DNA of 64,000 nucleotides from Candidatus Poribacteria bacterium (lineage in GTDB: Bacteria > Poribacteria > WGA-4E > WGA-3G), in contig OZ242029.1 of NCBI GenBank assembly GCA_965205015.1, forward strand, positions 1,728,001-1,792,000, read 5' to 3'. The position numbers and the translations under genes are program-made. Each line of letters starts with the position of its first letter. The stretch's first letter is position 1. The notes below the pieces were generated by a model. It saw only the letters and a program-made list of their open reading frames with translations, was not told where the DNA came from and searched no databases. Positions 26,932-53,682 of this stretch are shown piece after piece.

Positions 26932-28836
26932 TCACTTGTTATCATAAATGAACCACACACCCTCCACTTTTCGCATCTTAACAGATATCTCCGGCGGCTG
27001 CGCCATCGGCATTTTTAATCGAAAGTGGAATTCATCACCCACATATTCGCTGCTCAACACCTCCATCTGACTTAACATTTGACGCACCTGAGGACGCATA
27101 TCCGCTGGCACATCCTCAAAATCATTTTCAAATGTTTCTCTGGCATCTCCTGTAAGCATCGAGCGTAGTGTCTCTGAATCGAGATTCTTAAATGCTTCCA
27201 CGAAAGCGTTCATCGTATCTTCCGCAGATTGCTCCGGGCGCGCTGATGACGCTTTTCTCGGCTCTGGTTTCCGATTCGGTTCGACAGAGATTTTTGCCCA
27301 AAAAGCGTTGACCAACCCTTTCTCACTGGACCAATTGCCGGTTACCCCCAACTTAAAGGGCTGCCCTCGGTCAAAAGGATGAACGATGTGTCCGCTCATG
27401 CCCGGCTCAATTTCCCACGCGGAAACCAGCGCATTATCAGGTATACCTGTCGTGGGAAGTTCCGTGTCTCCGGCGAACAGATCGAACGAACCCGGCACCT
27501 CGCCGTTGCCCACCCAGGTATCAATGGTAAGTGTACCGCCGTCTTCAAACAGTGTGGTGTCAATCTCAACGGTTGTGTAATCCTGATTGCCATGACCGGG
27601 CGCGCGAAAAATGTTCAGGATCTCCATTGAGGTTCGCTGAGCGTTGAGGGCGACGTGTCGGCTACTACCCAATCCGGGACGTTTCCCTTCTAATGATTCC
27701 ACGAGAAACCGTTGGTAAGCCTCGTCTATGTAGCGCATCGCATTGAATAGGTCATTGACCGGTTGACGTCCCATCAGTTCCAGATCGGGCGATATCACCA
27801 AACAATCTACCGGAGAATACCGCTTCCACCCACTAATAATTGTTCGTGCCAAGGGCTGCATTCCGTCAATTCCCTTTGCTTCACGTAATCTTTTCATATC
27901 GGTGTTCAGCACCCAGGTGTTGACAAACTTTTCGTTGAGCGATTCGATGATTCGGTCATTGGAGAGGACAACTGCCCTCAAGGTTTTTCCACTCCCTCAG
28001 CACGCCTCGTCGGTGAGGGGTCCATTGATCGAAACCACATGAATCGGCTTTCGCAGCGATCTTGCTATCTCTAACGCTTTGTCCATCGCTACCCATTTGA
28101 TTTGTTCCGACTTATAGAAACGGTGTATCAGTCTACGTTCCGCTTCTTCTTGGGTGATGGCTTGGGTGAATTGCGTGTCTGACGTGATAGCCTGTGTACC
28201 AGCAAGGAGTGATATTTGAGGACAAAAGCCGGCATCCGTACCGAAGTAGCGACTATTCTCGTGTTTCCGGTTCACATCGAAGTTGAGGGTGCCTTCAGGG
28301 ACGTACATCTCAAAGAAGGCGACTTTCGCCTGCGGACGGTCAATAACCAAACGACCGGCAAACTGGGACGGGGTGAACCAACCGTCCGCTAAGGCAAATT
28401 CTGCATGGATGCGAAACACAATTTCGGCAAAGAGATCATTGTAAGCGCGAAGCGTTGCCCATAACCCTGAGGAATCCACAGGACTGTGCATCTCCACGTA
28501 TGGGTTGGGGTGAAGTTGCTTCAGCAATTCCAGAATGCCCTCCGGTTTAACGTGCCACAGTTCGCCCACGGAGACAGGCTGATGCGGAAGAAATGCTTGA
28601 AAAACCGACGCTGCATATCGCTTTTCTGGTTCAGCGACTTTCAAGTTCGCTAATGTGTCCCAATTCACATGAAAGTTGTCGACTGTATACGCAATCGGAG
28701 CGATGAAGCCTTCGACGGAGACTTCTGACGTGCTGTCAAGGGTAAGTGTGATTTTGTTAGGTGTGGTGTTCTCATCAGCGTGAAGTTGTCCACTCATCAT
28801 CACCAGAATGAGAAATCCAATCGTTAGTGTTTTCAT
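26932..28836 (-). CDS. selN: Selenoprotein N-like exported selenoprotein (Sec at TGA 27999-27997; 634 aa), with the shared domain and a C-terminal NTF2/DUF4878-like domain
   Basis: Two track ORFs are in frame across one TGA: GPLTDEAC-TGA-GSGKTLRAVVLS...LNEKFVNTW, versus animal SelN [22 protein letters not shown]...LNESFISTW. The adjacent paralogue is continuous across this site, and a hairpin follows the TGA. Confidence 0.9.
27961..27999 (-). promoter_or_regulatory. Putative bacterial SECIS element
   Basis: UGA-GGGAGUGGAAAAACCUU-GAGGGC-AGUU-GUCCUC-UCC: a 6-bp upper stem with a G-containing 4-nt loop starting 23 nt after the UGA. Confidence 0.7.
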
Positions 28837-37219: not shown

Positions 37220-38812
37220 TTACCGAATTAAACTTTTAATCTTCGTTGAAAGGTTCTCTGGATCCAAGTCTATAAACACATCTTTGACGACCAGTTCTCT
37301 ATTTAAAAGGAGGGTTATGAGTTCCGTTTGCGGTTCGGAGGTATCTCGGTTGAGGAGCGTTTGTATATTGAGGAGCGTCTGCATCTGGTCGTTTTTATCC
37401 ATCCAGATGGGCATCGAAAGTTGGTGTCTCTCTTTGAACGCCGCAATCGCCTTCACGGAACCGCTGGTGCTAATCCCAACTGCTTGTAATTGGGGGGCAT
37501 CGTAGTTTGAAAGCCGTTTCTCTATCTGTTTTAACTTCGGCCCACAAGTGGTAGAATCTGGTGAAAAAAGGTTCACAAGGACAAACTTGCCGCGGAGTGC
37601 CTCTAACTTAACGGGTTGTCCTGAAAGGTCAGTCAGCGCGATGTCTGGCATCGGTTTGCCCAATAGGAGTGCCAATTCTTCCTGATCTATAGACACGGGG
37701 GATGTCGGTGTCAATTGCTTGAGCAGTGCTTTTCCTTCTACGGAGTCAAAAAACGCTTCACCCAATTGCTCTTCCAATTGCTCTTTAAGTTTCGCCTCTA
37801 AGTTGTCCGAGGGATGGATTTGGAAGGTGATCCTTTTTACCATTTTGGGGTTCTTGAGCAGCTGCGCTTCCATTTGCTTTCTGACTTCTGCGGGTAAACC
37901 CTCCGGCAGTTGCGTTTGGGTGGAAATCATTTTTACGATTGTTCTGTCATAGATGTTTCTTTGCGGTCCGTTTCGATAAAGTTTTCCACTGACGCTTAGG
38001 TTCAGCAGATGATGCTGGCAGCGCACGATGGGTACCATATCGCCCTCTATTTCCAATAGAAATTCCTGTCCTGCCTTCTGTTCGGGACGAAATTCATAGA
38101 GATAACTACACGGCAGGATCGGGTCCGATGCACCTTCGGTGAGAACTCCTGGACTTCCTGCTGTTGGATCCGCAGGACAAAGTAGCACTTTTTTCTTCAG
38201 GTATTCTGGAGAAAGTTCGGAAAGCCATTGCGGTTCCGTCCCTACCTCAGCGCGGTGGTTTTCGAGAGCAAGCTGTATTTGTCTTAAATTCTCTCGGCAG
38301 GTCTGAATCTCTTTGGAATTGTCAAGGGGCTGTTTTTCTGAGGGTGAGGCTAACTCATAAGGGTAGAGGTCTGCTAAGAGGAGGCGGTTCAAACGGATTA
38401 AATCTCCACCGCTTTGCGGATTTCGCGCAAGGAGCTCTTGGGTCTGTTCACTGAGTTCGATATTAGCAAGATGTTGTGCATCGTAGAGGGAGGGAACCTG
38501 GAGCAATCGGTTCAAGTCGTCGAGCAGTGCTTTCTGAAAAGCCGGGGAAGGGATACTTATACCATCATATGCATCCAGCAGCCTCTGGGTCTCCGCAGAC
38601 AATTGTGTGGCTATAGGTTTGGATACCGCAGCGCGCGGGTCTTGAAGTTTCACTGCCAAGCTGCCGGGATCTTTAAGATCTTTACTGTGAAACAGAAGTT
38701 GATTTCCATCTGCGGGGACAACTGAAGTCAGACTCAGTAGGATGGCAATCAGAAACGTTGCGATTGTGTTCAGTAGGACGCGAACCTTCAATCGTCCGAG
38801 TGTGTCTGGCAT
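37220..38812 (-). CDS. Exported protein with a C-terminal TlpA/redoxin-like domain (SxxC site)
   Basis: Signal peptide; GKPMPDIALTDLSGQPVKLEALRGKFVLVNLF-SPDSTTC; the central CRENLRQIQLAL...LLCPAD...CSY segment resembles pseudopilin/DUF1559-type segments. Confidence 0.75.
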   Translation of the reverse strand: MPDTLGRLKVRVLLNTIATFLIAILLSLTSVVPADGNQLLFHSKDLKDPGSLAVKLQDPRAAVSKPIATQLSAETQRLLDAYDGISIPSPAFQKALLDDLNRLLQVPSLYDAQHLANIELSEQTQELLARNPQSGGDLIRLNRLLLADLYPYELASPSEKQPLDNSKEIQTCRENLRQIQLALENHRAEVGTEPQWLSELSPEYLKKKVLLCPADPTAGSPGVLTEGASDPILPCSYLYEFRPEQKAGQEFLLEIEGDMVPIVRCQHHLLNLSVSGKLYRNGPQRNIYDRTIVKMISTQTQLPEGLPAEVRKQMEAQLLKNPKMVKRITFQIHPSDNLEAKLKEQLEEQLGEAFFDSVEGKALLKQLTPTSPVSIDQEELALLLGKPMPDIALTDLSGQPVKLEALRGKFVLVNLFSPDSTTCGPKLKQIEKRLSNYDAPQLQAVGISTSGSVKAIAAFKERHQLSMPIWMDKNDQMQTLLNIQTLLNRDTSEPQTELITLLLNRELVVKDVFIDLDPENLSTKIKSLIR

Positions 38813-46851: not shown

Positions 46852-49800
46852 TTGTGCCTTCACGCGAATCGCCGAAATTTAGTTAGCTTCGGACTCGCGA
46901 CAAGTAGGGAGAAGCGAGTGTCAACAAATAAAGATATGTACGGTGTAACTTGCAGGTCGATGCACAACAGTCGAGATCAACGTGATAGTGGAAGTTATCC
47001 TCCCACCCGATTCCCAATCCGCTCCGGGTTGGCGAATTTTCTCTTTTTTCTGAGTTTTGTTTGTTTCGCAATCCTAACGATACCGACCCCCGGTTGGACA
47101 AAACTGACCGGTTTGAGAGTCGATGCGGGTGGGGATAACATTTTCAGAGGCGGCGTAGATAGATTGCGGATTACCTTCAGTGTCGATGATGAGGACGACG
47201 AGGCTCCCTATATCGTTCAGGTGATGAACGAGGGTAAGACTGAGACCTTGGGGATCATCGATCAAGGGACCGTGTCGGCAGATGAGACGGTGAACCTTTT
47301 TTGGGACGGCACTATTAACGGCACACGCCTGCCGGACGCTATCTATACGATCCGTGTTACTGTTGATGATGGTGTTGTTGATGATGGTGTTCCTCCGGCA
47401 GATGAGGTTTTGACAGCAAAAGCAACTTTGGATACCAGTAGACCGCGTGTTTCCGGTGTCTTCGCAAACGATGATCCTGCTAAAGAGATTACCGATGGCA
47501 GTTTTATCACGGAACCGCTCGAATCAATTATGGTAACAGGGGTGGATGAAGGCGTAGGCGGTGATATTGATCTCGGTAACAGGCGAAACACTATTTTCCT
47601 GAGAAATGCACAGCAGGTTGTCGTGCGCGGAACTCTCGATTATCGTCCTGGACAGGAGGGCGGACAAGACAGGCCAGCGGTTCCTGGCAGTCTAACCTTT
47701 ACTTTAGTAGATCCCTTGGACGAACCTTCTGAAAATGGAAAATACACCCTTATTCTCATCTTAATAGATGAAGCCGGTAATGTGGTCCAAAGTTTGCGGG
47801 AATTTACCTTTGATAACATCAAACCCCGTTTGAGAAGAGTCTCGACCAACAGAGGGGGACTCATTCCGGGGGGCGGTGTGAGTCAGCGCCTCAATTATGT
47901 TGAAGCGGTACTCACGGATAACCTTGAAGACGGTGTCGATCTCTTTGAATCTACCATAAAGCTCTATCGCAAAGCCGACGGTACTGGCGAGCAGACTCTT
48001 ATACCGGGAGAAAAAACGGAGGATGTTGAAAGTGGTAAAATCCGGTGGAGCCTCCTAACACCCTTGTTAGGCAGAGACGATTCCCAAGATGGTGAATATA
48101 TTATTGAGGTCACCGTCGTTGATAAGGCAGGTAACCCAGCGGATGCGGTGCAGATTCCGTTTCGCTACGATAACCGGGCACCGAGCCCTGTGTCGGTAAG
48201 CCCTATGGACAATAGGGACGAACCCTTTGGTCCCTTTCCCGATACCAATTATTACAATGCCCCCATCACCGGATTTATCGTTGACTTTGGTGATACGGAA
48301 ACGGACGTGGACCTTGCCGGCAGGCGGCGATCTACGCAGATTGTGTTTGGGACACCGAAAGAATCTGGGGAGGGTGTGAATGTCCTTGAAGGACGCGTCG
48401 TCACAGATACCGATAGCAATACATTAACTTACATCCTCAATCAGCCGATCGTCAGTCGCGATGGCACCCAAGATGGACAGTATCTCCTCAACGTGCAGGC
48501 AACGGACACCCTCGGCAATATCAAGACTTACGATTACCAAATCGTCTACGATACGCAGCCGCCAGCACTCGTTTCTACAACGCCAACCTCCAACGAGACC
48601 GTCTCAGAGTTATCACAGGTTCAGATCAAGCTCGATGAAAAAACCAGCGGCATCGATTTCGTTCAGAGCGACATCAACTTTCAACTCTGGAAAGGGAGAG
48701 CGGCAGATGTTCTCCAAGACGAGCCGTCTGAAGCAAGACAGGTGCCTGTGAATATCGCGAGTAACGGCATGGATACAGTTACGCTGACCCTCTTGAAACC
48801 GATTGCTTTGGACTTTTCAGATGATGGCACCTACACAATTAAAGTCGCTCCCATTGACCGCGCGGGCAATCCAGGTGGGAATGCCGTGCGCGAGTTCTAC
48901 CTCGTCAGCCAGAAGCACGAACCCGAAGTCCGATTGACACTGCCCGAAACGACAACCGTCAACACGTTCCCGATGGTTGCCGTGGAACTGGTGGATTATG
49001 TCGGCGCGGGTATCGACTTTAACGCGTCAACGCTGGTTGTCAGAAACCCCGAGGGGGCTCCGGTCTCACAGGAAAAAATTGTACGCGATGCAGCAAACAA
49101 CGCATTAACCTGGACGACTGAAGCGGTGATCCCGCCTGATGGAAGTGCGGATGGTGAATATACCATAATTGCGACGTTTGTCGATTTTACGGGAAAAAGT
49201 TTTACACAGCAGTTCTCGTTTGTTTTGGACACACAGGTTCCCGAAGTTGAAAGCGTACACGTGGCAATCGAATCCCAACCCGAGCTTTCTGTGGAGACCA
49301 TAACGACGTTTACCGAGAGTTTTTCGCAAATCATCGTAACTTTTGAGGACACCCGCGGAGACGCTGAACAAGATTCGCAGGGACTCAGTAATGATGTTGA
49401 TTTTGCGGATACCGTGGTTGCGTTAGCGGGACCGGAGGGTTCCATTTCGACGAATGTCTCTGTCTATAGTCCCACGCAACTCGCCATCCGTTTTGTTGAA
49501 TTGATAGAGGATGGTTCGTATACGCTGTCGGTGACCCCTCAAGATATTGCTGGTAATACTGCCCGAGGTGCCCTGCACTACGCATTTCTGATTGATACTG
49601 AGAGTCCTCGGATAACTGCGGCCTCTCCGATAACATTGAGTGAACCTGTCTCTTATATCGGCACGGATTTCAGACAGTTTGTGTTTACGATTGAAGATGT
49701 GGGGCCCGCGGATCTATTTCTTGAGGAACAGACTGTTACGTTATTAGACGCTGCTGGCAATACTGTTCCCACTACACTAACGTATGATGAGCCAACAGGT

Positions 49801-52800
49801 CAGCTGTACCTCAGGATTGTGTCTCCATTTGCCCAAGATGGGAGTTCAGATGGCGAATATAGCGTGAAAATATCGCTTGTTGACAAAGCGGGGAACCGTT
49901 CGGATTCTGAACACACCGTCGTTTATGATTCCAAAGTGCCGCAGCTTTCTTCTGTCGTGTTGAATACTGAGCCTTCAACAGTGCTGGAACCGCAGCTGAT
50001 TGAGATGATTACTGAGCCCGTTAGCAGTATTACCCTTCAATTTTTTGAGGAAGCGACACGCATTGACTTTACCAATACCGCGGTTGAGTTAGCAGGTCCA
50101 GTAGAGGCTGCTGTCCCGGTCAATGTATCTGTGGATACGCCTACACAACTCACTCTCCGTTTTGTTGAATTGATAGAGGACGGTTCCTATACACTGTCGA
50201 TAACGCCGCGGGATATTGTGGGGAATGCTGCACAAGGTGCCGTGCGTTACGCGTTTATGATCGACACGGAAGCCCCTCAGATCACTGCCCCGACACCTTT
50301 GATATTTAACCAGAGTCCTGTTACGTATATCGGTAGCGCATTAAGACAATTTCAGTTCGCGTTTACTGTTACAGATGTAGGTCCAGCGGATCTGTATTTG
50401 GAGGAACAAACCATTGAAGTCGTGAGTGCATCTGGGGTGAATATTCCGGTCGCTGTGACGTATGACGAGTTGACGAATCAAATCTTTTTGTCACTGCCTG
50501 CCTCCTTTCCTCGAGACGGGAGTGTGGATGGTGAATATACCGTAAAAGTCTCGCTCGTCGACAAGGCGGGGAATCGTTCGGATTCCGAGTACACCGCGGT
50601 TTATGATTCCAAGGCACCTCAAATAGGTTCGGTGATGGTGAATACTGACCCCCCGATGGAGCTTATCCCGAATCGGGTTCCCGAGCTCGTGGAACCTATC
50701 AACAGTATCACCCTTCAATTTGAAGAGGCGACGCGGATTAATTTTGCCAATACGCAGATCACGTTGATGGGACCCGAATCAACGACTACGGACGGTGAGG
50801 CTACAACACCCACAATTCCGCTGACATTGGAGGATGATGGCGTATCTCAGATGACCCTCAGTTTCTTGGATTTGGAACAGATCGGTGCGTATGTCCTGTC
50901 TGTTACACCGCAAGACGTAGCAGGAAATGCCGCCGCAGGTCCTACTGAGTATAGATTCCTTGTGGAGATACCGCTGCCGCGCGTCGGTGCTGTTGTTATC
51001 GGGGAAGTAGAAACAGAGGCAAGCGGGGATGTCGCCTACGTCAATGCAGGCAATATGCGCATCGGCGCGTTTCTCCTTGACCCGACGGAGACGGGGTTAT
51101 CCTTTGGTAATGAAGGATCGGTTATCCAGGTGACGGAATCCGATGGAACCACAATTGTTCCCGGTAGAATAGGCTCCAATGGAGAAGACCTGATCGTTTG
51201 GGAACCGGTAACCCTTACATCGGATGGCACCACGGATGGCAGATACAATGTAGTCGTTGTACCCATTGATAAAGCCGGGCGGCAAGGAAGCGCGGTGTAT
51301 CGTGAATTTATCTATGACACACAGGAACCAGAGATCACAGCGGCTGGCCCAATCCCAATAGATTTGAGTCAACCCGTCTCCTATATGAGCCAGAGTTTGA
51401 CACAATTCAACTTCACTATCCAAGATATCGGTCCCGCAGACCTTGAGTTGTCGGATCAGGAAGTCAGCCTCCGCGATGCAGGGGGTGGTTTGGTCCCGGC
51501 ACAACTCACGAACAATGCTGAAAACCGACTCTTCCTCACGTTAGACCAACCCTTACCCCTCGATGGCAGTATGGATGGGGAATATACCCTCCGTGTTGCG
51601 TTGGTGGATAAGGCAGGAAACCCCTACACGGTCGAACACCTGATCGTCTATGATACACAGGCACCCACGCTTGTTTCTACAGTGCCAGCTGATGGTGCCC
51701 TACTGACAGAGGATATTACGGAGGTACACGTAACGCTCAACGATGAAGGTGGGAGTGGTATTGACTGGACAGCAACGACGGTGATGTTGGTTGACCCGAC
51801 TGGCGAGCAAATATCCGGTGAACTCGTCAGTGACGGAGAAACCGAGTTAACCCTTACGACAAACCAACTCGTTGAAGATGGTCGATATATCGTCCGTGTG
51901 CAAGCCTTTGACCGTGCAGGCAACGGAGGCGCGGTCATCTTTGAGCAGAGTTTTCTCTTGTCAAGGCGTTTGCCCACCATTGTTTCGACGGAACCTATTA
52001 CAGCACCCGTGGATGAAGCGTTTATGAATGAAGAACTCGAGCGGATAGAAGTAACGCTTGAAACAGATGACGAAAATCACTTATCAACACTTCGTTTACT
52101 AAATCCTGCTACTGAGGTCGTCGCGGGACAACTGCAACGAGAAACTGATCAGTTGATCTATAATCTTGTCCGGCCACTCGCCACCGACGGGTCCGAAGAT
52201 GGGGTCTATACCATTGAATTTACACCCATCAGTGCTTCTGGACGGAGCGGGGCGCTTCAACGATTGACCTTCACCTACGACACAGAGGCACCAGAGATTG
52301 AGACAGATGAAGCAATTAACCTCGTTGTCGTGCAACCGGAGGTTAACAATTCTCTGACAGAAATTCACGTCAGTCTTACCGACGACACGTCCGGCATTGA
52401 TTGGAAAAGCCTTGACGAGAAATGGTTGACCTTTGAACGACTGTCACCGAATCCAGCCAAAATTTCGGGACACATCTCTGACGATGGAGAAGAGACCCTG
52501 ACTTTCCGGTTGACTGTGCCGCTCGCAGACAACGGTTCCGCAGATGGTGAATATCGAATTACCCTTAACCCGAAGGACCGGGCAGGTAACGACGATGAAC
52601 CTTATGAAAAGGTCTTCGTCTACGATACCAGTCCGCCGATGATTGATTCAAGCACGTTACTTATCAATGAGGTGCCACTCCTTGTTGACATCAATGCGGA
52701 AAATTACCCAACCGCGGTTTCAACAACAGGCGGTGTTGTCCTCCAGGCGAACATCTTTGACACTGGTTTAGGGGTGAACTTGGCGAAATCGAGGATTGTT

Positions 52801-53682
52801 GTGAGAGGTCCCGATGGATCGGAGATTTCGGGTAGCACGCAGCAGAACGGCGTGGACACTCTCATTTTCAAATCCGATGGATTTAGGGTCGAAGGTATCT
52901 ATAATGTCACGATTGTGAGCATCGGGAATGATTCCGAACTCCTCGGATTCGCACCAACGGATTCGTTGACCACCGCATTTCTATATGAAACCACCGTACC
53001 GACTGCCGCTATAACGAGCGATGGGGGTGAAACCGAGCTGACCGATAAGGCACTCCCTTTAGAAGGTACAGCCGCCGACCCAAGTGGCACGCAGCGGATC
53101 GGTGAAAACGAAATTCAAGTCCCGGCATCCGGCGTATGGCTCGTTGAGATCGTCGGCACCGGACCCGACAAACAACCCATAGATCCTGTTGCTGCTGTTG
53201 ATGATAGCGACGCAGAACAGGAACCGTGGAGCGTTTGGTCGATTGACTTTCTGCCAACACGTTCCGGTGAATACGACTTAGATGTCCGGGTCACTGACAA
53301 TGCGGGGAACTATGAGGTTTACGACATTGGCGAGTATACGATGTCTGTATCTCTCACTTTCCGAGGGTCGACCTTTGGATGGCCAAACCCACTCCGACTT
53401 TCAAAGCGGGATGTTGCTTTCTTCTCCTTTGATGTCAATGTGCCACGCGGAGACACGATTGAACTCACACTGAGTATCTACGATTGGAGTGGTGACATGG
53501 TACTCTCCCAAACGTATCCCGATGTTGTATCAGGGCAGCGCAACGATCAGTTGGTGAAGTGGAATTTGGAGAATCAGGCGGGTACCCCTGTCGCACGAGG
53601 CCTCTATGTCTTCAGATTGGAAGCCGTCAATTCAGCGGGAAATCGCGCCAACATTGTCGGCAAAGTGTTGGTCGTGGAATAG
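46852..53682 (+). CDS. Giant exported Ig-like repeat protein with an N-terminal FlgD-Ig-like and a C-terminal T9SS-sorting/FlgD-like domain (start probably ATG at 46960)
   Basis: Hydrophobic signal segment; many repeats ending DGxxDGxYxxxVxxxDxAGN...YDTxxP; C-terminus GWPNP...IYDWSGDMV...WNLENQAGTPVARGLYVFRL. Confidence 0.88.
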   Translation: MCLHANRRNLVSFGLATSREKRVSTNKDMYGVTCRSMHNSRDQRDSGSYPPTRFPIRSGLANFLFFLSFVCFAILTIPTPGWTKLTGLRVDAGGDNIFRGGVDRLRITFSVDDEDDEAPYIVQVMNEGKTETLGIIDQGTVSADETVNLFWDGTINGTRLPDAIYTIRVTVDDGVVDDGVPPADEVLTAKATLDTSRPRVSGVFANDDPAKEITDGSFITEPLESIMVTGVDEGVGGDIDLGNRRNTIFLRNAQQVVVRGTLDYRPGQEGGQDRPAVPGSLTFTLVDPLDEPSENGKYTLILILIDEAGNVVQSLREFTFDNIKPRLRRVSTNRGGLIPGGGVSQRLNYVEAVLTDNLEDGVDLFESTIKLYRKADGTGEQTLIPGEKTEDVESGKIRWSLLTPLLGRDDSQDGEYIIEVTVVDKAGNPADAVQIPFRYDNRAPSPVSVSPMDNRDEPFGPFPDTNYYNAPITGFIVDFGDTETDVDLAGRRRSTQIVFGTPKESGEGVNVLEGRVVTDTDSNTLTYILNQPIVSRDGTQDGQYLLNVQATDTLGNIKTYDYQIVYDTQPPALVSTTPTSNETVSELSQVQIKLDEKTSGIDFVQSDINFQLWKGRAADVLQDEPSEARQVPVNIASNGMDTVTLTLLKPIALDFSDDGTYTIKVAPIDRAGNPGGNAVREFYLVSQKHEPEVRLTLPETTTVNTFPMVAVELVDYVGAGIDFNASTLVVRNPEGAPVSQEKIVRDAANNALTWTTEAVIPPDGSADGEYTIIATFVDFTGKSFTQQFSFVLDTQVPEVESVHVAIESQPELSVETITTFTESFSQIIVTFEDTRGDAEQDSQGLSNDVDFADTVVALAGPEGSISTNVSVYSPTQLAIRFVELIEDGSYTLSVTPQDIAGNTARGALHYAFLIDTESPRITAASPITLSEPVSYIGTDFRQFVFTIEDVGPADLFLEEQTVTLLDAAGNTVPTTLTYDEPTGQLYLRIVSPFAQDGSSDGEYSVKISLVDKAGNRSDSEHTVVYDSKVPQLSSVVLNTEPSTVLEPQLIEMITEPVSSITLQFFEEATRIDFTNTAVELAGPVEAAVPVNVSVDTPTQLTLRFVELIEDGSYTLSITPRDIVGNAAQGAVRYAFMIDTEAPQITAPTPLIFNQSPVTYIGSALRQFQFAFTVTDVGPADLYLEEQTIEVVSASGVNIPVAVTYDELTNQIFLSLPASFPRDGSVDGEYTVKVSLVDKAGNRSDSEYTAVYDSKAPQIGSVMVNTDPPMELIPNRVPELVEPINSITLQFEEATRINFANTQITLMGPESTTTDGEATTPTIPLTLEDDGVSQMTLSFLDLEQIGAYVLSVTPQDVAGNAAAGPTEYRFLVEIPLPRVGAVVIGEVETEASGDVAYVNAGNMRIGAFLLDPTETGLSFGNEGSVIQVTESDGTTIVPGRIGSNGEDLIVWEPVTLTSDGTTDGRYNVVVVPIDKAGRQGSAVYREFIYDTQEPEITAAGPIPIDLSQPVSYMSQSLTQFNFTIQDIGPADLELSDQEVSLRDAGGGLVPAQLTNNAENRLFLTLDQPLPLDGSMDGEYTLRVALVDKAGNPYTVEHLIVYDTQAPTLVSTVPADGALLTEDITEVHVTLNDEGGSGIDWTATTVMLVDPTGEQISGELVSDGETELTLTTNQLVEDGRYIVRVQAFDRAGNGGAVIFEQSFLLSRRLPTIVSTEPITAPVDEAFMNEELERIEVTLETDDENHLSTLRLLNPATEVVAGQLQRETDQLIYNLVRPLATDGSEDGVYTIEFTPISASGRSGALQRLTFTYDTEAPEIETDEAINLVVVQPEVNNSLTEIHVSLTDDTSGIDWKSLDEKWLTFERLSPNPAKISGHISDDGEETLTFRLTVPLADNGSADGEYRITLNPKDRAGNDDEPYEKVFVYDTSPPMIDSSTLLINEVPLLVDINAENYPTAVSTTGGVVLQANIFDTGLGVNLAKSRIVVRGPDGSEISGSTQQNGVDTLIFKSDGFRVEGIYNVTIVSIGNDSELLGFAPTDSLTTAFLYETTVPTAAITSDGGETELTDKALPLEGTAADPSGTQRIGENEIQVPASGVWLVEIVGTGPDKQPIDPVAAVDDSDAEQEPWSVWSIDFLPTRSGEYDLDVRVTDNAGNYEVYDIGEYTMSVSLTFRGSTFGWPNPLRLSKRDVAFFSFDVNVPRGDTIELTLSIYDWSGDMVLSQTYPDVVSGQRNDQLVKWNLENQAGTPVARGLYVFRLEAVNSAGNRANIVGKVLVVE

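Follow-up and report, generated by a model that had tools for sequence, protein, structure and literature searches.

A cysteine followed directly by selenocysteine (Sec) is known from thioredoxin reductase, whose C-terminal Gly-Cys-Sec-Gly redox centre forms a selenenylsulfide. Selenoprotein N (SELENON) is the product of a human disease gene (SEPN1-related myopathy). SELENON is described as a calcium-sensing redox protein of the endoplasmic reticulum (ER) that acts on SERCA, and it is reported to reduce hyperoxidised luminal cysteines of SERCA (PMC9344019). For prokaryotes a 2026 review, styled 'the most comprehensive inventory', compiles 119 selenoprotein families and subfamilies (PMC13188914). 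A SelN-like family is not among the 119 entries of its Table 1, and the accessible text of the review yields nothing relevant for SelN or SELENON. Here we describe a gene from a 64,000-nucleotide stretch of a Candidatus Poribacteria genome (contig OZ242029.1, positions 1,728,001 to 1,792,000; this whole stretch is called the window). With high probability the minus-strand positions 28836-26932 of the window form a single gene, which encodes an exported selenoprotein (634 residues) of the SELENON family and whose UGA codon 280 is decoded as Sec by the ordinary bacterial route.

Translation table 11 divides this locus into two minus-strand open reading frames (ORFs), 28836-27997 (279 aa, ATG start) and 27981-26932 (349 aa, TTG start). 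The original prediction had regarded both as one gene in one frame, parted only by TGA-GGG-AGT-GGA-AAA-ACC, and the sequence as well as the translation agree with it. The minus-strand letters read ...GAC GAG GCG TGC TGA GGG AGT GGA AAA ACC TTG AGG GCA GTT GTC CTC TCC..., the break between the ORFs is the TGC-TGA at 28002-27997, and the frame is common to both. If TGA is translated as Sec (U), 28836-26932 is one open frame of 634 residues, which is interrupted solely by U280 in GPLTDEAC-U-GSGKTLRAVVLS. The gene starts with ATG at 28836-28834, 7 nt downstream of a Shine-Dalgarno sequence (AAGGAG, 28849-28844), and its own terminal stop at 26934-26932 is again a TGA. Residues 1-20 (MKTLTIGFLILVMMSGQLHA, 28836-28777), a short hydrophobic segment resembling a cleavable signal peptide, probably are one as judged by eye; relatives have similar N-termini or lipobox-like motifs. 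The codon for Cys279, the putative partner of Sec, is TGC (28002-28000), and the in-frame UGA read as Sec280 is located at 27999-27997, an assignment that is based on the frame and on the conservation across relatives. TGC is found in 71 of 71 distinct relatives, which were preselected by the TGC-TGA pattern, and a Cys codon (TGT or TGC) precedes the site in all 13 independently found metagenome loci.

That standard gene callers would split such a gene had also been foreseen, and it can be observed in the databases. The 349-aa C-terminal ORF is stored as a separate protein (P0003), and a protein search with the product returned only unnamed or Poribacteria proteins. Dozens of relatives in the protein database start at 'MRAVVLS/MRAGVLS' or end at '...DESC'; since the former start exactly there, gene callers evidently cut them at the same place. 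One database relative comprises the C-terminal half of a preceding copy and then ends with '...DDESC'.

The homology to animal SELENON was addressed with a profile of 23 Poribacteria sequences (alignment A1), which was compared to 1.84 billion representative proteins. It gave 943 matches at E <= 1e-3, 624 at <= 1e-10 and 244 at <= 1e-30, some of which may lack the SelN core as the profile spans the beta-sandwich domain. Three of the best 150 of these 943 matches are animal proteins, from Nematostella (4.3e-49), wombat (3.6e-47) and the jellyfish Sanderia (7.3e-46). The closest named relatives of the wombat protein (P0158) are 'Selenoprotein N' of many vertebrates, with about 60% identity. In a BLASTP comparison the window product and P0158 share 31% identity over 239 aa (E 7e-31, query 101-308 versus 256-490), and the alignment runs from FRIHAEF over FxPSQF and the Sec site to LNEKF(V/I)xTW. 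FRIHAEF is present in both, and the other shared blocks are WFTPSQFAG versus WFCPSQFTG, GFCPQ versus GYLPQ, EEAERRL versus EEAAQQL, and LNEKFVNTW versus LNEKFISTW. The upstream blocks named in the original prediction (FRIHAEF, F[ST]P[AS]QF[TA]G, G[YF][IC]PQ, EEAxRRL, LNExFxxTW) are thus recovered in the BLASTP alignment, and the SELENON homology over the SelN-specific region is real. The redox motif of the window protein reads A-C-U-G-S-G-K-T-L-R, and most relatives have S-C-U-G. Animal sequences align at the Sec site, where automatic gene models skip or garble the U-G; the aligned position in animal selenoprotein N is established as Sec.

Domain libraries did not recognize the protein. No family and no EF-hand was detected in a Pfam scan of the read-through product (E <= 0.01), no family model was matched in Pfam and NCBIfam scans of the product and its relatives, and a sequence search of the PDB with the window protein gave no match. 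The homologous part comprises a beta-rich region and a thioredoxin-like domain, with the adjacent Cys-Sec and the following GSG(K/R)xLR at the same aligned position. The compartments would also correspond, because both are oxidising and extracytoplasmic or equivalent to it, presumably the periplasm or envelope here and the ER lumen for SELENON (PMC9344019). However, the window protein lacks the EF-hand and apparently also the type II membrane anchor of SELENON and instead carries the cleavable-looking signal peptide; its N-terminal region does not align to P0158. It also differs by additional beta-sandwich and C-terminal domains, and by a Sec codon that is specified by a bacterial hairpin within the ORF and not by a selenocysteine insertion sequence (SECIS) in the 3' untranslated region. 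Moreover, the bacterial family comprises many tandem paralogues per genome, and its targets cannot be SERCA.

SelN had been regarded as mainly eukaryotic in the original prediction. Profile searches and metagenome loci contradict this, as they find the family widespread in bacteria. Among the best 150 of the 943 representatives, 148 (P0062-P0209; the other two are P0016 and P0035) were taken as a sample of its breadth. Almost half of them (71 of 148) are proteins of 240-400 residues which lack the motif type of the Poribacteria and whose last residue is the Cys preceding the site, for example in '...FGTLDDESC', '...EGVLDDQSC' or '...WGALDDQSC'; the N-termini of most resemble signal peptides or those of lipoproteins. 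A profile of these 71 fragments retrieved 180 proteins. Two of them are named 'selenoprotein N' by JGI, so automatic annotation has already touched the homology, and the NCBI titles of others refer to metagenome-assembled genomes of Planctomycetes/Planctomycetota and Poribacteria. According to these sequence comparisons the SelN-like family is broadly bacterial. Within the Poribacteria many genomes contain at least eight scored matches and up to 30 first-look candidates. The copies often form tandem arrays of three to five genes, as in G002 (489-500 kb) and G169 (5.657-5.668 Mb), and some genes (L031, L041) carry two beta-sandwich domains. A literature search revealed no publication on a selenoprotein N from Poribacteria or other bacteria; the S9 Table of PMC4807772, a supplement with selenoprotein candidates, might bear on prior knowledge. 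In that paper, which was found with 'selenoprotein N' and Planctomycetes, the phrase occurs only within a reference title, and every occurrence shown for the BSepDB paper (PMC13326102) reads 'selenoprotein name'.

An unrooted tree was calculated from 117 sequences and 278 columns with IQ-TREE (LG+C20, SH-like approximate likelihood ratio test). It includes 23 Poribacteria sequences, the 71 N-terminal fragments, 13 longer metagenome proteins and ten hand-picked animal sequences, none of them from a sponge. The animals form one clade (support 100) on a long branch, located inside a 47-sequence side (98) that otherwise consists of metagenome sequences of the '...DDQSC' type. On the other side (70 sequences, 98) the Poribacteria fall into two clades, the long forms including the window protein and a 415-aa lipoprotein-like short form, and each of these clades is nearest to metagenome sequences from outside the Poribacteria. 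This suggests that the animal gene nests among bacterial ones, in a tree that is unrooted and does not fix the direction of transfer.

The tree also bears on a recent host-to-symbiont transfer, by which a sponge SELENON would have been taken up by the Poribacteria, and which was to be judged by phylogeny according to the original prediction. The habitat would allow for it, as Poribacteria live in sponges and sponge metagenomes are among the DNA datasets carrying the window stretch (no RNA dataset is listed among these sequencing runs), and sponges have SelN according to a table in PMC3473315. Nevertheless, we consider such a transfer very unlikely. The animal clade groups with '...DDQSC' sequences bearing bacterial lipoprotein-like N-termini, whereas both Poribacteria clades are found on the opposite side next to bacterial-type sequences, so that this unrooted and sponge-free tree gives no specific link between sponges or animals and Poribacteria. 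The gene itself has a bacterial SECIS within the ORF, a signal peptide and no EF-hand. As the family is broadly bacterial, a transfer from sponge to symbiont is not supported.

The decoding of the UGA as Sec is indicated by its conservation in the first place. When each prokaryote species was represented by one genome, a scan found 41 loci, with Poribacteria or uncultured bacterium as the title in every case. In these loci and the window 73 genes contain TGC-TGA followed by codons for Gly/Ala, Ser/Thr, Gly and Lys/Arg, with at least one gene per locus, and their 60-nt downstream stretches represent 62 distinct sequences. The occurrence of TGC-TGA at the same codon in 73 genes far exceeds chance. 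When 175 genomes of the phylum were surveyed in six frames, 130 had a match at E <= 1e-20. Among the 150 matches listed (there are 608 further ones) 143 contain one TGA, five no stop and two only TAA. All three examined matches of the 'TGA+TAA' type have TGC-TGA at the site, and their TAA either terminates a flanking gene or ends the gene itself; the two 'TAA only' matches as well as one examined match without stop have GGA (Gly) at the site. The stop type in orthologues had been proposed as a check, and the outcome is that the site keeps TGA and that neither TAA nor TAG occurs there among the orthologues examined; TAA or TAG at the site was therefore rejected, the TAA lying outside the site in the two 'TAA only' and three 'TGA+TAA' matches. 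The close relative G145, which is syntenic and 86-90% identical at the DNA level, keeps GPLTDEAC-TGA-GSGKTLRAVVLS and the same hairpin.

Where the TGA is missing, the Poribacteria copies examined have Gly, Trp or Thr and no Cys, and in homologues outside the Poribacteria (P0064, P0071, P0076, P0082, P0094) an uninterrupted Cys-Cys is found. A second lineage, which is GC-rich and does not belong to the Poribacteria, has a Cys codon followed by TGA in 13 of 13 metagenome loci. In 11 of them the reading frame stays open behind the TGA with G-[ST]-G-x-x-LRAGPLS, over about 100 residues or as far as the contig extends; of the remaining two loci one reaches its contig end first and one has a further stop.

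Behind the UGA a candidate bacterial SECIS (bSECIS) hairpin, GAGGGC-AGUU-GUCCUC, is encoded at 27979-27964. It starts 17 nt after the UGA and has a stem of 6 bp and a loop of 4 nt. The bSECIS model demands a loop of 3-9 nt, a stem of 4-16 bp, a G in the first two loop positions, a distance of 16-37 nt between UGA and loop, and a minimum free energy (MFE) of at most -7.5 kcal/mol (PMC13188914, section 5). The window hairpin agrees with it, as its AGUU loop has G in second position followed by U, the distance between UGA and loop is 23 nt, and the MFE of the 16-nt hairpin is -7.7 kcal/mol (-11.8 kcal/mol for the 45-nt hairpin region). Across the related loci the hairpin reads GAGGGC-AG(G/U)U-GUCCUC, with the loop AGGU in 54 and AGUU in eight sequences, and all six pairs are formed in 60 of 62 distinct sequences. 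Counted by cells, 368 of 372 are paired, compared to 182-302 after a shift of the 3' partner by 1-3 nt. The two sequences that deviate, L029_5739 and L031_4906, are members of a subfamily for which another hairpin is predicted slightly upstream. In the GC-rich lineage the corresponding position is predicted to form a hairpin of 7 bp, GAGGGCG-GGUC-CGCUCUC, in ten of the 12 loci that are long enough to fold, and the sequence of its 3' arm differs from that of the Poribacteria hairpin. Rfam and tRNA scans of the window gave no match, and for a bSECIS in a coding region there may be no Rfam family.

Codon usage behind the UGA was compared in 71 distinct 150-nt stretches, which were picked by a pattern requiring TGC-TGA. 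At codons +1 to +6 the amino acids are fixed while the codons vary synonymously (AGC 58 and AGT 12; GGC 56, GGT 11 and GGA 4; CTG 55 and TTG 14), from which we conclude that the stretch upstream of any usable start is translated. Codons +7 to +11 (Arg, Ala, Gly, Val, Leu) are frozen, with AGG in 71 of 71, GCA in 66 of 66, GGT in 63 of 63, GTC in 66 of 67 and CTC in 71 of 71 sequences, as compared to a synonymous entropy of 1.6-1.9 bits in comparable four- to sixfold degenerate flanking codons. Judged from these frozen codons, the hairpin is under constraint at the RNA level.

These data have to be weighed against the simplest alternative, that the TGA is a true stop and the locus consists of two genes or of a gene broken by a nonsense mutation, with the C-terminal ORF started at TTG 27981 or not made at all. 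In agreement with this, table 11 splits the locus, TGA ends 15 of the 54 long ORFs in the window including this gene itself, and a GGGAG is located 10 nt before the TTG. It is nevertheless extremely unlikely. A stop would have to be kept at the same codon, and always as TGA, in the 73 genes of all the loci and in the 143 of 150 listed phylum matches. The amino acids between TGA and TTG are conserved through synonymous changes, and the codon taken as a start by gene callers (TTG in the window copy) reads CTG in 55 of the 71 sequences. Finally, the Cys homologues are uninterrupted and animal homologues align across the site. A genome-wide reassignment of TGA was rejected on the basis of the same 15 of 54 long ORFs that it terminates.

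Some observations weigh against the interpretation as a selenoprotein gene. The energy of the hairpin passes the cut-off only narrowly (-7.7 versus -7.5 kcal/mol), and the 68 nt downstream of the TGA do not fold more stably than shuffled sequences (z = -0.38). RNAalifold, applied to 31 hairpin regions of both lineages, found three invariant pairs and no two-sided compensatory change; the variation in the hairpin is one-sided only, from G-U to A-U or G-C. As both lineages pair in different registers, classical covariation is not claimed here. The Cys-TGA and the hairpin with a differing 3' arm in the GC-rich lineage offset these weak points in part. The GGGAG upstream of TTG 27981 makes some independent start of the C-terminal half possible in the window copy. 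Furthermore, the proposed catalysis is an extrapolation from animal SELENON, a protein with a chemistry that is itself only partly understood.

Decoding also depends on a dedicated machinery, for which the original prediction had suggested a search. The evidence comes from the genomes of relatives. In all five complete Poribacteria chromosomes carrying the family, selA, selB, selD and tRNA-Sec (the selC product) were detected above curated cut-offs. Between the tRNA-Sec gene and the end of the selB match there are 40-46 nt in four of them and 183 nt in G005 (loci L042-L051, G001-G005). The selD of Poribacteria relatives is itself a selenoprotein gene with one in-frame TGA. In the phylum selB is above cut-off in 166 of 175 genomes including G145; among the 130 genomes with the SelN-like family it was detected in 126, the exceptions being G077, G119, G129 and G130. 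Because TGC-TGA is conserved, the stop is always TGA, a SECIS-like hairpin follows and the machinery is present in relatives, the TGA almost certainly stands for Sec. That the UGA is instead read as another residue, by near-cognate Trp, Cys or Arg or as Gly like in genetic code 25, is extremely improbable too: paralogues do carry Gly (GGA/GGC) or Trp at the site, one base away from TGA, but TGA terminates many genes of the window, a hairpin of the SECIS model follows the codon, relatives have the complete machinery including a Sec-containing SelD, and animal gene models drop or garble the homologous position as expected of a Sec codon, which is what this position is in animal selenoprotein N.

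The window contains a paralogue without Sec at 25382-23709 on the minus strand, which encodes 557 aa and is 57% identical to the selenoprotein. The original prediction was right in describing it as uninterrupted at the site; the residue found there is Gly and not Cys, as the codons are TGT-GGC (Cys-Gly, 24461-24456), and the protein descends from Sec-containing ancestors. A relic of the hairpin, GAGGGC-AGUC-GCUCUC, is still visible, and the Gly paralogues form a group (support 100) inside the Sec-containing clade. Orthologues of this subfamily have TGC-TGA in G138, G168 and G005, TGT-GGA in G131 and TGC-GGA in G126 (loci L070-L073, L068, L069); in the orthologue of G156 (L068) the codons are AGC-GGA, so that Cys is also replaced, by Ser. 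Since orthologues keep TGC-TGA or carry GGA one base away, Sec was lost to Gly recently and left the hairpin relic behind. In other subfamilies the site is occupied by Trp (P0016, P0018) or Thr (P0019). A Gly-type copy in L065 (G163) has a perfect stem (GAGGGC/GCCCUC) and the loop AACU, which lacks the G required by the model. In this copy the SelB-binding loop may have decayed after the loss of Sec.

The AlphaFold2 model of the whole protein (mean predicted local distance difference test, pLDDT, 77) consists of a beta-rich part at residues ~30-225, an alpha/beta part at 229-385, a beta-sandwich at 394-520 and a poorly modelled C-terminal domain. The predicted beta-rich N-terminal part of the SelN-homology region (28749-28162) holds FRIHAEF and FTPSQF; its residues 101-225 are within the BLASTP alignment with wombat P0158, and residues 30-100 are unaligned. 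The predicted thioredoxin-fold domain follows at 28152-27682. The beta-sandwich domain (27657-27277) occurs neither in animal SELENON nor in the short bacterial form of 415 aa, and the putative C-terminal alpha+beta domain (residues 538-631, 27225-26944), which is modelled with low confidence, occurs only in a subfamily of about 660 aa. A Foldseek search with the whole 634-aa model gave mostly generic beta-sandwich matches, and the core was therefore modelled alone with 40 sequences, resulting in a pLDDT of 94.3 and a predicted TM-score (pTM) of 0.89. In this core model a strand (41-46) is followed by C55-U56, which correspond to C279-U280, and by a helix (58-64). Thus Cys279-Sec280 are predicted between the first strand and the first helix of a thioredoxin fold, the canonical place for the redox residues.

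The best Foldseek matches of the core are thioredoxin-like domains of the DsbH type, AGR2/AGR3, ERp19, DsbD-gamma and the UAS domain (7tkv E 3e-5, 2ju5 E 1.4e-4, 3ph9 E 4e-4, 2dlx E 1e-2 among the DsbH-type, AGR2/AGR3, ERp19 and UAS neighbours). They differ from the window protein, as the identity is 11-22% with TM-scores of about 0.4-0.55, and they contain neither Sec nor the SelN-specific beta-rich domain. No entry described as SELENON is among the Foldseek matches listed for the whole model and the core. The ESM Atlas, searched with the uninterrupted paralogue, returned only a Poribacteria 'hypothetical' cluster at 0.77 and was uninformative. Compared to thioredoxin reductase, the adjacent Cys-Sec pair and the subsequent Gly are alike; there, however, the motif is located on the flexible C-terminal tail of a flavoenzyme, while the window protein would carry it within a thioredoxin fold and has no flavin domain. 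The closest bacterial systems are the Sec-containing Trx, DsbA-like and Prx-like families, which share the decoding by a bSECIS within the ORF, the thioredoxin fold and Sec at the strand-helix junction (Table 1 of PMC13188914). Their motif is UxxC or CxxU, in contrast to the adjacent C-U of the window protein.

Together this points to the following scheme. The SECIS hairpin in the coding region (27979-27964) would recruit SelB with Sec-tRNA(Sec), so that Sec is inserted at UGA-280, and the protein would be exported to the envelope by means of its signal peptide. There, Cys279 and Sec280 would cycle between selenol/thiol and selenenylsulfide, thereby reducing oxidised cysteines or peroxides on envelope targets. 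Such a function would be the counterpart of what is reported for SELENON with SERCA in the ER lumen, another oxidising compartment (PMC9344019). The decoding step is well supported; the role as envelope thiol/selenol oxidoreductase, with its chemistry and targets, is what we infer from SELENON, the sequence and the predicted fold.

The selenoprotein gene is part of a long minus-strand array. On the side of lower coordinates it is followed by a gene for an extracytoplasmic function (ECF) sigma factor, the Gly paralogue, and then ABC-2 permeases, an ABC ATPase, a TolC-like outer-membrane protein and another ECF sigma factor. The ECF sigma factor encoded next to the selenoprotein (26826-25504, minus strand) is a fusion protein, in which sigma regions 2 and 4 (residues 1-183) are joined by way of a hydrophobic segment to an extracytoplasmic beta-sandwich (25872-25510) that matches selenoprotein residues 398-518 with 57% identity. 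A relative of this sigma factor, P0075 (58% identical over residues 3-299 including the sigma regions), has a SelN-like domain ending with '...DDESC' in place of the beta-sandwich. These sequences suggest the existence of single-chain sigma factors with extracytoplasmic sensor domains of the SelN type. On the side of higher coordinates an AhpC/TSA-redoxin-domain protein (37220-38812), ABC-2 permeases, a DUF3108-like protein and a 237-aa protein of unknown function are encoded. The neighbourhood would fit an envelope stress or redox setting.

The protein encoded at 37220-38812 (minus strand) comprises 530 aa with a C-terminal AhpC/TSA-redoxin domain, and its gene lies between ABC-2 permease genes. 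By its domain it is a possible redox partner or parallel envelope antioxidant. The window also contains a very long plus-strand ORF (46852-53682, 2276 aa, TTG start).

In summary, the two ORFs of the window form one genuine selenoprotein gene, whose product belongs to the SELENON family as a bacterial member. It is one of many Poribacteria paralogues in a broad bacterial family that escapes both catalogues and gene callers. A wider proposal is put forward tentatively, at somewhat less than even confidence. SelN would be ancestrally a bacterial envelope Cys-Sec oxidoreductase, the family being a large one with hundreds of clusters at 50% identity, mostly split at the UGA and outside the table of the 2026 review. 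SELENON would then have arisen by a single transfer out of one '...DDQSC' branch, and in some bacteria the domain or the beta-sandwich would be wired to a membrane-spanning ECF sigma factor as a redox sensor.

The interest of the finding lies in the breadth of the family, in the probable bacterial roots of a human disease gene and in the experimental access. This selenoprotein seems to be widespread and to be divided in two by routine annotation. As the family is split by gene callers and absent from the 2026 inventory and NCBIfam, selenoproteome counts would be underestimated for Poribacteria, and probably also for Planctomycetota and other groups. A bacterial homologue that is soluble and exported, with the same Cys-Sec centre, natural Cys, Gly and Trp variants and many paralogues, offers material for structural work, for enzymology and for the role of the Cys-Sec pair. 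If SelN is indeed ancestrally bacterial, the bacterial proteins would be a tractable model for the unresolved chemistry and structure of the human myopathy protein.

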